64,000 bases of DNA. Origin: Longimicrobiales bacterium. GTDB taxonomy: Bacteria; Gemmatimonadota; Gemmatimonadetes; Longimicrobiales; Gaopeijiaceae. Under the pieces are notes generated by a model. It had not been told where the DNA came from and ran no database searches. It was given only the letters and a program-made list of their open reading frames with translations. Positions 13,098 through 14,072 of this stretch are shown one piece after another (within the stretch, counting starts at the first letter, position 1; the number at the start of each line of letters is the position of its first letter). The position numbers and the translations under genes are program-made. The stretch lies in contig OZ250165.1 of assembly GCA_965238005.1 (NCBI GenBank), positions 1,568,001-1,632,000 of the forward strand. Reading direction: 5' to 3'.

Positions 13098-13725
13098 TGG
13101 ATTTCAGCCTTAGTAAAACTGAACCATATGCGGGAATACCCTCGTACAGCCGTCCGGTACTCGTAGACCATCCAGTCTGCAGTAAAAATCCGGTGGACAT
13201 GGGGGCAATCCGCAGGGAAGGCCCGGGTCCTGCACCCGGGAACCCTCAGAGACTTTACGTTCAGGATTGCATCATGAAACTCGAACCGCAGTGGATTGTG
13301 GGGTTCGTGGACGGTGAGGGATGTTTTCACGTCGGCATCAACAAACACGCTGATATGACAACAGGATATCAGGTCTTACCTGAGTTCACCGTCGTGCAGC
13401 ACGAACGCGATGTTCAAGCGCTCCACGCGTTGAAGGCCTTTTTCGGTTGTGGAGTGGTTCGCAAGAACCATGGCGACCGGCTGGCCTATCGCGTCAGGGG
13501 TAAGGATCATCTGCTCGAGCGCATCATCCCGTTCTTCGAAAAGCACAAGTTGAAGACGAAGAAGCGAGTAGACTTCCAGAAGTTCAGGAAGATCGTGCGG
13601 ATGATGGGCGAAGATCGGCATTTGACCAGAGAAGGAATCGATGAGATTCAACGCATCAAGAATCAGATGAACCGAGGGCAATCAAGATAAAGTCCAGCTT
13701 TATAGGAAACTGTAGAGACCAACTG
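13098..13725 (+). ncRNA. Group I intron at 23S L1931-equivalent site
   Basis: Follows exon U, ends in G; P1 CUAAGGU/GCCUUAG; R element TCAGAGACT and S element AAGATAAAGTCC. Confidence 0.93.
13274..13690 (+). CDS. Intron-encoded single-motif LAGLIDADG homing endonuclease
   Basis: WIVGFVDGEGCF motif, PEFTVVQ, LKAFFGCG, IIPFFEKHKLKTKK; 138 aa; stop codon lies within the S element. Confidence 0.93.
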   Translation: MKLEPQWIVGFVDGEGCFHVGINKHADMTTGYQVLPEFTVVQHERDVQALHALKAFFGCGVVRKNHGDRLAYRVRGKDHLLERIIPFFEKHKLKTKKRVDFQKFRKIVRMMGEDRHLTREGIDEIQRIKNQMNRGQSR

Positions 13726-13745
13726 AGCGAAATTCCTTGTCGGGT

Positions 13746-14072
13746 AGATAAAACTGCCCCGAGTGGGAGCGATCCCGCTCAGCAAACCGGCTCAAATCGG
13801 TGAAACCCTACCGGCCCTGTGCAGGGGCCGCGGGCAATACCGAGGGTAAGATGGCCCATCCAGCCATCCCTGTAACGACTCAAGGGTGAGATCCTTGGAT
13901 GGTGAAGTGGCTTCAGCCACCGATCCATAACACGCCGGCCCTGATCTTTGCCGATGGATGTGATCACGATGGGGATGAATCCATCCGGCAGACTCAGAAG
14001 ACGAGATTCTCAACTCGCTTCGATCAGGTGAAGGTATAGTCTGTGCCCACGGGACAACCGTGGGATAACACG
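13746..14072 (+). ncRNA. ORF-less group I intron at 23S L1951-equivalent site
   Basis: Follows CGGGT, ends in G before AAGTTCCGAC; P1 UCGGGU/GCCCCGA; R-like GTAACGACT and S-like GAAGGTATAGTCT. Confidence 0.9.

Follow-up and report, generated by a model that had tools for sequence, protein, structure and literature searches.

The only 23S rRNA gene of this Longimicrobiales genome is interrupted by two unrelated group I introns lying just 20 bases apart. Each of them probably splices itself out independently of the other, with no fixed order between them. The gene lies within a 64,000-nucleotide stretch of contig OZ250165.1, called here the window, and positions below are those of the window unless the genome is named; every feature of the 23S gene is on the + strand.

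An interrupted gene in a single rRNA operon

The rRNA operon of the window consists of genes for 16S (9228-10789), 23S (11103-15024), and 5S (15132-15248) rRNA. The 23S gene, in three exons, matches Rfam LSU_rRNA_bacteria with 2659 bits. The genome is closed (one contig of 4.84 Mb) and contains this one rRNA operon and a single copy of each insert; no intron-less junction is found anywhere in it. Exon 1 ends with CCTAAGGT at 13097 and is followed by intron 1 (13098-13725, 628 nt), a micro-exon of 20 nt (13726-13745), and intron 2 (13746-14072, 327 nt). Each insert is preceded by U and has G as its last base, precisely as a preliminary description of the DNA had it, down to the coordinates. The micro-exon and both of its flanks are the same, letter for letter, as rrlB of E. 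coli K-12, and the micro-exon corresponds to positions 1932-1951 of E. coli 23S rRNA. The insertion sites are therefore L1931 and L1951, the sites that had been proposed.

The surroundings of the gene can be described briefly. The spacer between 16S and 23S (10790-11102) has no tRNA gene, and tRNA-Ile(GAT) and tRNA-Ala(TGC) are encoded elsewhere in the genome. A fused HPPK-dihydropteroate synthase gene (folK-folP, 7317-8651) adjoins tRNA-His and the rRNA operon on the upstream side, and a gene for an Era-like GTPase with GTPase and KH domains (15465-16415) lies directly 3' of the 5S gene. Outside the window, tRNA genes form two arrays, each with 17 genes, at positions 1035994-1037821 and 4451264-4453598 of the genome. 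In the first there is a tRNA-Ile whose anticodon, AAT, is uncommon in bacteria, along with a tRNA of unassigned identity.

Since relatives with just one of the introns exist, one might suspect an assembly chimera put together from two single-intron alleles. This is scarcely conceivable, because contigs from three sequencing runs link intron 1, the micro-exon, and the start of intron 2. Four of 23 runs were examined, all as assembled contigs: X1, of unrecorded kind and possibly made from the source sample, and the RNA runs X15, X16, and X17. A contig of X1 covers 13384-13809 with no differences from the window, and contigs of X15 (13379-13758) and X16 (13384-13775) come from a relative with the same linkage. 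Furthermore, the same pair is found independently in two other genomes, that of another Longimicrobiales bacterium (G401) and that of a second member of the same family (G221).

Two introns of different kinds

Both inserts had been described as group I introns with a P1 and core elements, and so they are: each has a splice-site U.G pair in P1, a terminal G, and a conserved core from P3 to P7 with a G-binding pair. The Rfam check that the preliminary description called for matched intron 1 but not intron 2.

Intron 1 (13098..13725) scores 49.1 bits against Rfam Intron_gpI (RF00028), slightly below the gathering score of 50, with an E value of 2e-11. Its P1 is made of seven pairs between the 3' end of exon 1 (13091..13097) and a guide at 13107-13113, including U13097.G13107 at the splice site, and the exon strand is 100% paired in 21 homologues. 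The core consists of P3 (13119-24/13259-64), P4 (13129-34/13209-14), P6 (13215-17/13243-45), P7 (13249-55/13690-95), and P9.0 (13696-97/13723-24), and the intron closes with G13725. Over P3, P4, P6, P7, P9.0, and P9, 96.1% of the cells are paired in 21 close homologues. Twelve of 38 pairs have changed on both sides, a number that none of 500 shuffles attained, although the structure was derived from the window's own sequence and so has an advantage over slid controls. The intron lacks P2 and P7.1 and has an extended P5, features which, with its site, fit subgroup IB4, and the intron is called IB4-like. The link between site and subgroup comes from archaeal LSU/1931 introns, which are classed as IB4 (PMC6125680).

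P8 of intron 1 carries a gene (13274..13690) for a single-motif LAGLIDADG homing endonuclease of 138 amino acids, with its stop codon in J8/7-P7. The frame is open, and the protein has one LAGLIDADG helix with an acidic catalytic position and the full domain (Pfam LAGLIDADG_1, E 1.5e-26, model positions 1-102 of 102). Its best single-motif match in PDB is 5gkk_A (E 3e-53), which we take to be I-TnaI of Thermotoga. Compared with the copy in G401, the gene has 12 synonymous changes at about 87 sites and 7 nonsynonymous changes at about 327 (counted by codon), consistent with past purifying selection; the G401 copy is now frameshifted by a 7-nt deletion near its 3' end. Ahead of the start codon of the window's gene, an AGGA resembling a ribosome-binding site (13259-13276) overlaps strands of P3 and P8, so translation and the folding of the ribozyme would compete.

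The known L1931 introns of Thermotoga, Simkania, Synechococcus, and archaea (IB4) share with intron 1 the site, a single-motif LAGLIDADG gene, the lack of P2, and a similar size, being 654-700 nt with endonucleases of 143-167 amino acids (PMC1995217). Intron 1 differs from them in its predicted P10, which is shifted in register as described below, and in its host, a member of the Gemmatimonadota.

Intron 2 (13746..14072) has no match in Rfam, RF00028 included, at E<=10. RF00028 likewise found none of the archaeal IA3 and IB4 introns that subtype models found (PMC6125680), so the miss reflects a limit of the model rather than a defining feature of the intron. What identifies intron 2 is its fold (folding z of -4.7) and the covariation within it. 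The elements are a splice-site pair U13745.G13756, P2 (13761-13780), P3 (13787-92/13932-38), P4 (13797-802/13838-43), P7 (13875-80/14038-42), P8 (13940-46/14022-28), P9.0 (14043-45/14069-71), and the terminal G14072. Taken over 13 L1951 homologues that lack an ORF, the 44 pairs making up P1, P2, P3, P4, P5, P6, P7, P8, and P9.0 are 99.3% paired. Nineteen of the 44 have changed on both sides, which none of 500 shuffles reached (slid controls, 34-44%). P7 is invariant in the 13 homologues, the covariation coming from P1, P2, P3, P4, P5, P8, and P9.0.

Group I introns of subgroup IA3 are marked by a pair of additional helices that separate P7 from P3 and by a short P5. Intron 2 has both, the helices (P7.1 and P7.2) lying at about 13881-13930, and is called IA3-like, by criteria taken in part from a passage on L2593 in PMC1995217. 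Its P8 is extended by what was once an endonuclease gene (13954..14072), of which the start and the 3' end are kept, while about 380 nt of the middle are gone relative to G221. The L1951 intron of G221 (locus L007, 707 nt) and intron 2 are identical at 196/214, 20/27, and 76/81 positions around the gap of ~380 nt, and the ORF of the G221 intron, with an internal stop read as X, matches LAGLIDADG_1 with E 3.8e-20. From the alignment and this match, the P8 extension is identified as the remains of a LAGLIDADG gene.

Splicing and the shared micro-exon

Each intron would be removed by its own standard two-step guanosine reaction, and with both of them out, an intact 1931-1952 region of 23S rRNA would be rebuilt. 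Because there is no intron-free copy of the 23S gene, splicing is presumably obligatory. A sign of excision comes from RNA run X15. One contig of 296 nt (depth 39) joins the terminal G of intron 2 at 14072 back to 13750, the base that follows U4 of the intron, and the shorter side of the joint spans 114 nt. A circle of intron 2 shortened at its 5' end (13750..14072) would give such a joint. The contig agrees with the window at every base of 13750-13883 and carries 8 additional nucleotides in P8, which mark it as a variant from a close relative. Linear group I introns, once excised, form truncated circles (PMC3679873). The joint, then, is the signature of an excised and circularized variant of intron 2 in a close relative; it is the sole direct sign of excision, seen in one contig, and in that measure excision is partly shown. 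The circle may stem from an allele that lacks intron 1, or the joint may have arisen by template switching during reverse transcription. Among the joints listed, none between 14072 and 13750 occurs for X1, X16, or X17, and a circle or other product of intron 1 is absent from the joints listed (15 of 29).

Two other kinds of evidence were considered and rejected. Ligated joints (13097-13726 and 13745-14073) say nothing about splicing, since every intron-less bacterium gives the same, and differences in depth between contigs are not informative where contigs have been assembled from mixed communities. One contig of X16 starts exactly at the first base of intron 2, though contigs do not show the ends of RNAs.

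Perhaps the exons stay unligated after the removal of one intron or of both (by 3' hydrolysis or as full-length circles), or an intron is retained, so that the 23S rRNA is fragmented or interrupted. The L1931 intron of Simkania has been reported as unspliced, according to a title cited in PMC11270868; the route through full-length circles leaves the exons unligated, according to PMC3679873; and the P10 helices predicted here are atypical (intron 1) or weak (intron 2). Even so, this outcome is very improbable. The circle that was found is of the truncated kind that follows splicing and not full-length, both cores are complete and conserved, and a loose fragment of 20 nt would hardly be tolerated in a cell with a single rRNA operon. 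Self-splicing of both introns is the reading we prefer, with that of intron 1, and the independence from order, inferred. Each intron occurs alone in relatives, and therefore neither needs the other. Splicing may depend on proteins of the host or on a maturase.

In the predicted structures, both introns do pair with the same 20-nt exon, the first through its P10 and the second through its P1, as the preliminary description foresaw. It went on to suggest that the shared exon might impose an order of splicing, and this finds no support in the bases involved. The predicted P10 strand of intron 1 (13099..13105, -3.9 kcal/mol as a model hairpin) pairs with nt 4-10 of the micro-exon (13729-13735), while P1 of intron 2 takes up nt 17-20 (13742-13745), leaving 6 nt free between them. 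The gap is 6-13 nt, with no overlap, in all 15 double loci where the first intron is whole, as judged by a simple best-helix rule (the guide was picked wrongly for intron 1 of locus L072 and intron 2 of L090, with the result unchanged). With P10 and P1 on separate exon bases, competition for base pairs imposes no order. The arrangement is not that of a twintron either, in which one intron is nested in another: the two stand in tandem around the conserved exon 1932-1951.

The window's 6 nt are the smallest gap of the 15, owing to the shift of P10 in intron 1. Among 83 L1931 introns that were scored, most use nt 1-6 of the exon, and only the window uses nt 4-10, a shift of 3 exon bases. Even where base pairs do not overlap, the ribozymes may crowd each other, or folding during transcription may fix an order. 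On such grounds one could argue for an obligate order, one ribozyme blocking the other on the 20-nt exon until one intron (most simply intron 1, which is made first) has left. A contig of X17 seems to speak for this, as it runs from exon 1 through exon 2 into intron 2 with no coverage of intron 1, and among the contigs listed for the four runs there is none of the opposite intermediate. That contig, however, is either a splicing intermediate or an allele with the L1951 intron alone, as found in the related genome G224, and the second explains it equally well. Besides the lack of competition for bases, there exist layouts with exons of 14 and 8 nt (PMC1995217 and PMC6125680), and the G401 gene has three introns around exons of 14 and 20 nt. 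An obligate order is distinctly unlikely, and free order remains the better account.

The pairings that could cause skipping of the micro-exon are predicted to be weaker than the proper ones. The guide of intron 1 gives -8.6 with exon 1 and -3.4 with the end of the micro-exon, and the P10 duplex of intron 1 gives -6.3 with its own exon versus -3.6 with exon 3. For intron 2, the guide gives -2.2 with exon 1 versus -7.9 in its own P1 hairpin, two different kinds of calculation, the hairpin value being used because the duplex optimum may lie in a shifted register. Its predicted P10 is weak (-1.1). A joint skipping the exon (13097-14073) does not appear among the joints listed (15 of 29), an absence from contigs that is uninformative. 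In Coxiella, exon skipping is reportedly very rare. It is named in the title of a paper by Hicks on that organism, as cited in PMC4990558 and PMC11270868.

Distribution and history of the pair

The pair is not rare. A GTDB scan for exact copies of the micro-exon preceded by G listed 120 loci (of a total of at least 120), in 81 of which the whole upstream insert is visible; exact patterns miss introns that end in A and exons that vary. An insert directly after the micro-exon, at L1951, is present in 24 of the 120 L1931-pattern loci listed, and the pair recurs in G221, within the same family. A profile of the L1951 family built from alignment A1, which includes 9 of the 24 inserts, matches 23 of them: those 9 by construction and 14 of the 15 others. 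The exception is the insert of L122, which looks like a different subgroup. The 24 loci listed span Actinomycetota, Chloroflexota, Nitrospirota, Gemmatimonadota, Gammaproteobacteria, Planctomycetota, Patescibacteria, and others (phyla as given in the genome records).

Within the phylum, 208 of 401 genomes have this stretch of the 23S gene (counting the unpublished G157 as one). The L1931 signature occurs in nine of them and L1951 in five, with both in two, the window's genome (G000) and G221. One further genome, G369, is a likely carrier of an L1931 intron cut by a contig end, and locus L160 (G028) was dropped as a chance match of the 15-nt pattern outside rRNA. Where the upstream exon is in view (77 loci), an intron at L1917 is present in 11 (one by eye) and one at L1951 in 12. 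With L1917 about as common a neighbor, L1951 is no special partner of L1931.

Other loci of the survey show how varied these sites are. In L071, what looks like an L1917 intron lies immediately before the L1931 5' exon and has A, not G, as its last base; an omega-A intron is also mentioned in the title of a paper on Coxiella. In L072, an actinobacterial locus with both L1931 and L1951, the upstream exon is interrupted after position 1911, which points to an intron at L1911. A 676-nt stretch before the micro-exon of L074 matches the L1951-family profile (E 5.6e-16) and is possibly an IA3-like intron at L1931. The L1931-site inserts of L047, L052, L056, L070, L084, L096, and L098, mostly from Patescibacteria, have a long 5' hairpin and a guide arrangement unlike that of the IB4-like type. 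Finally, L008 (G258), L009 (G278), L081, L091, and L158 (G086) have further inserts between 1917 and 1931; 23S genes with multiple introns recur in the phylum.

A tree of 23S exons from 30 loci places the window's genome as sister to G401 (support 100/98), with G224 as their outgroup. The groupings used are these and G221 with G374, the rows for L008, L009, L038, L081, L091, and L158 having short flanks or extra introns. G224 has only the L1951 intron, 93% identical to intron 2, and L1951 also occurs alone in G258 and G278; L1931 occurs alone in G222, G393, G003, and others. In G401, the L1951 intron has a 12-nt duplication in P8, and the third intron, at L1917, is ORF-less and 318 nt long (Rfam, 67.8 bits; L166:2593-2910, - strand). 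At L1931, G221 has another element, one without a BLAST match to intron 1; the nearest relatives of intron 1 beyond G401 are 76% identical and come from other phyla. Stages of a homing cycle are represented in the clade, with the endonuclease gene intact (intron 1 of the window), frameshifted (intron 1 of G401), interrupted by an internal stop (intron 2 of G221), or deleted (intron 2 of the window, G401, and G224). Judging from these sequences, we infer that the L1951 intron is the older in the clade and is decaying, its endonuclease lost, and that the L1931 intron arrived later and separately with an intact endonuclease, which would home into alleles free of L1931. Instead of a later arrival, intron 1 may have been lost in G224.

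Homing often co-converts flanking markers (PMC3984707), and co-conversion could move both introns together. The L1951 intron, lacking an endonuclease, might then be a passenger that is copied along whenever an allele free of introns is cut by the endonuclease of the L1931 intron, the 20 bp between them offering too little homology for repair to end there. L1951 was found in 24 of the 120 L1931-pattern loci listed versus 3 of ~198 genomes of the phylum without L1931, figures from different samples and only suggestive; a Fisher test of 24/120 against 3/198 was set aside, the samples being different and the genomes related. In the phylum sample without the window's genome, the association (1/8 versus 3/198, p 0.15) is not significant. 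Furthermore, the descent of intron 2 within the clade mirrors that of the hosts, and the outgroup G224 has it while lacking intron 1; the similar frequency of L1917 (11/77) and L1951 (12/77) as neighbors fits hosts that are permissive to introns just as well. We consider transport as a passenger unlikely. Quite improbable is a bolder proposal that joins it to a fixed order: that the shifted P10 and the 6 free bases lead to crowding and ordered splicing, while the L1951 intron without its endonuclease rides with L1931 homing, the two making up a coupled unit of splicing and homing across many phyla, overlooked since Rfam misses the second intron. Two separate arrivals, each intron splicing independently, account better for the locus.

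Closely spaced introns in 23S genes have precedents. Coxiella has group I introns at L1917 and L1951 around an exon of 34 bp (PMC4990558 and PMC11270868). The window resembles it in that a single 23S gene is interrupted by a pair of group I introns, with L1951 as the downstream site and a very short exon between them. It differs in the partner site (L1931), in the length of the exon (20 nt), in that both introns end in G, and in that the endonuclease belongs to the first intron, whereas the 720-nt L1951 intron of Coxiella encodes one (PMC1995217, Table 1). The L1931 intron has another neighbor elsewhere: L1917 in Synechococcus C9, 14 positions away (PMC1995217), and L1923 in the archaeal contig KP308720.1, across an exon of 8 nt (PMC6125680), compared with L1951 in the window. 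Insertions are carried by 82% of 23S genes in CPR bacteria, in which, as in the genomes considered here, a single 23S gene can hold numerous group I introns, and one site can have forms with an ORF, degenerate forms, and ORF-less forms (PMC11270868). The host of the window is unlike these, being a non-CPR bacterium with a genome of 4.8 Mb. The supplement of that paper contains neither "1931" nor "1951," and its CPR site labels are not mappable to L1931 or L1951. A literature search (subscription surveys of chloroplast rrl genes lay outside it) turned up no paper that describes L1931 and L1951 introns together in a bacterial 23S gene, nor any on introns of this kind in Gemmatimonadota, in keeping with the preliminary description, which knew of no such pairing in this lineage. 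Twin introns around exons of 34, 14, and 8 nt are already published in the texts cited. About a fifth of the L1931-pattern loci listed have the L1951 insert as well, and the pair is therefore real but fairly ordinary.

The locus leaves the known mechanism of splicing unchanged. What it adds is a new host lineage, a figure for prevalence, one circle junction in vivo (from a relative's variant of intron 2), and an unusual predicted register of P10. Rfam scans miss this family of L1951 introns. The range of 23S group I introns now extends to Gemmatimonadota, the pairing of L1931 with L1951 is widespread in uncultured bacteria, and the locus provides a compact model, in a nonpathogen, for the study of splicing order and exon skipping.
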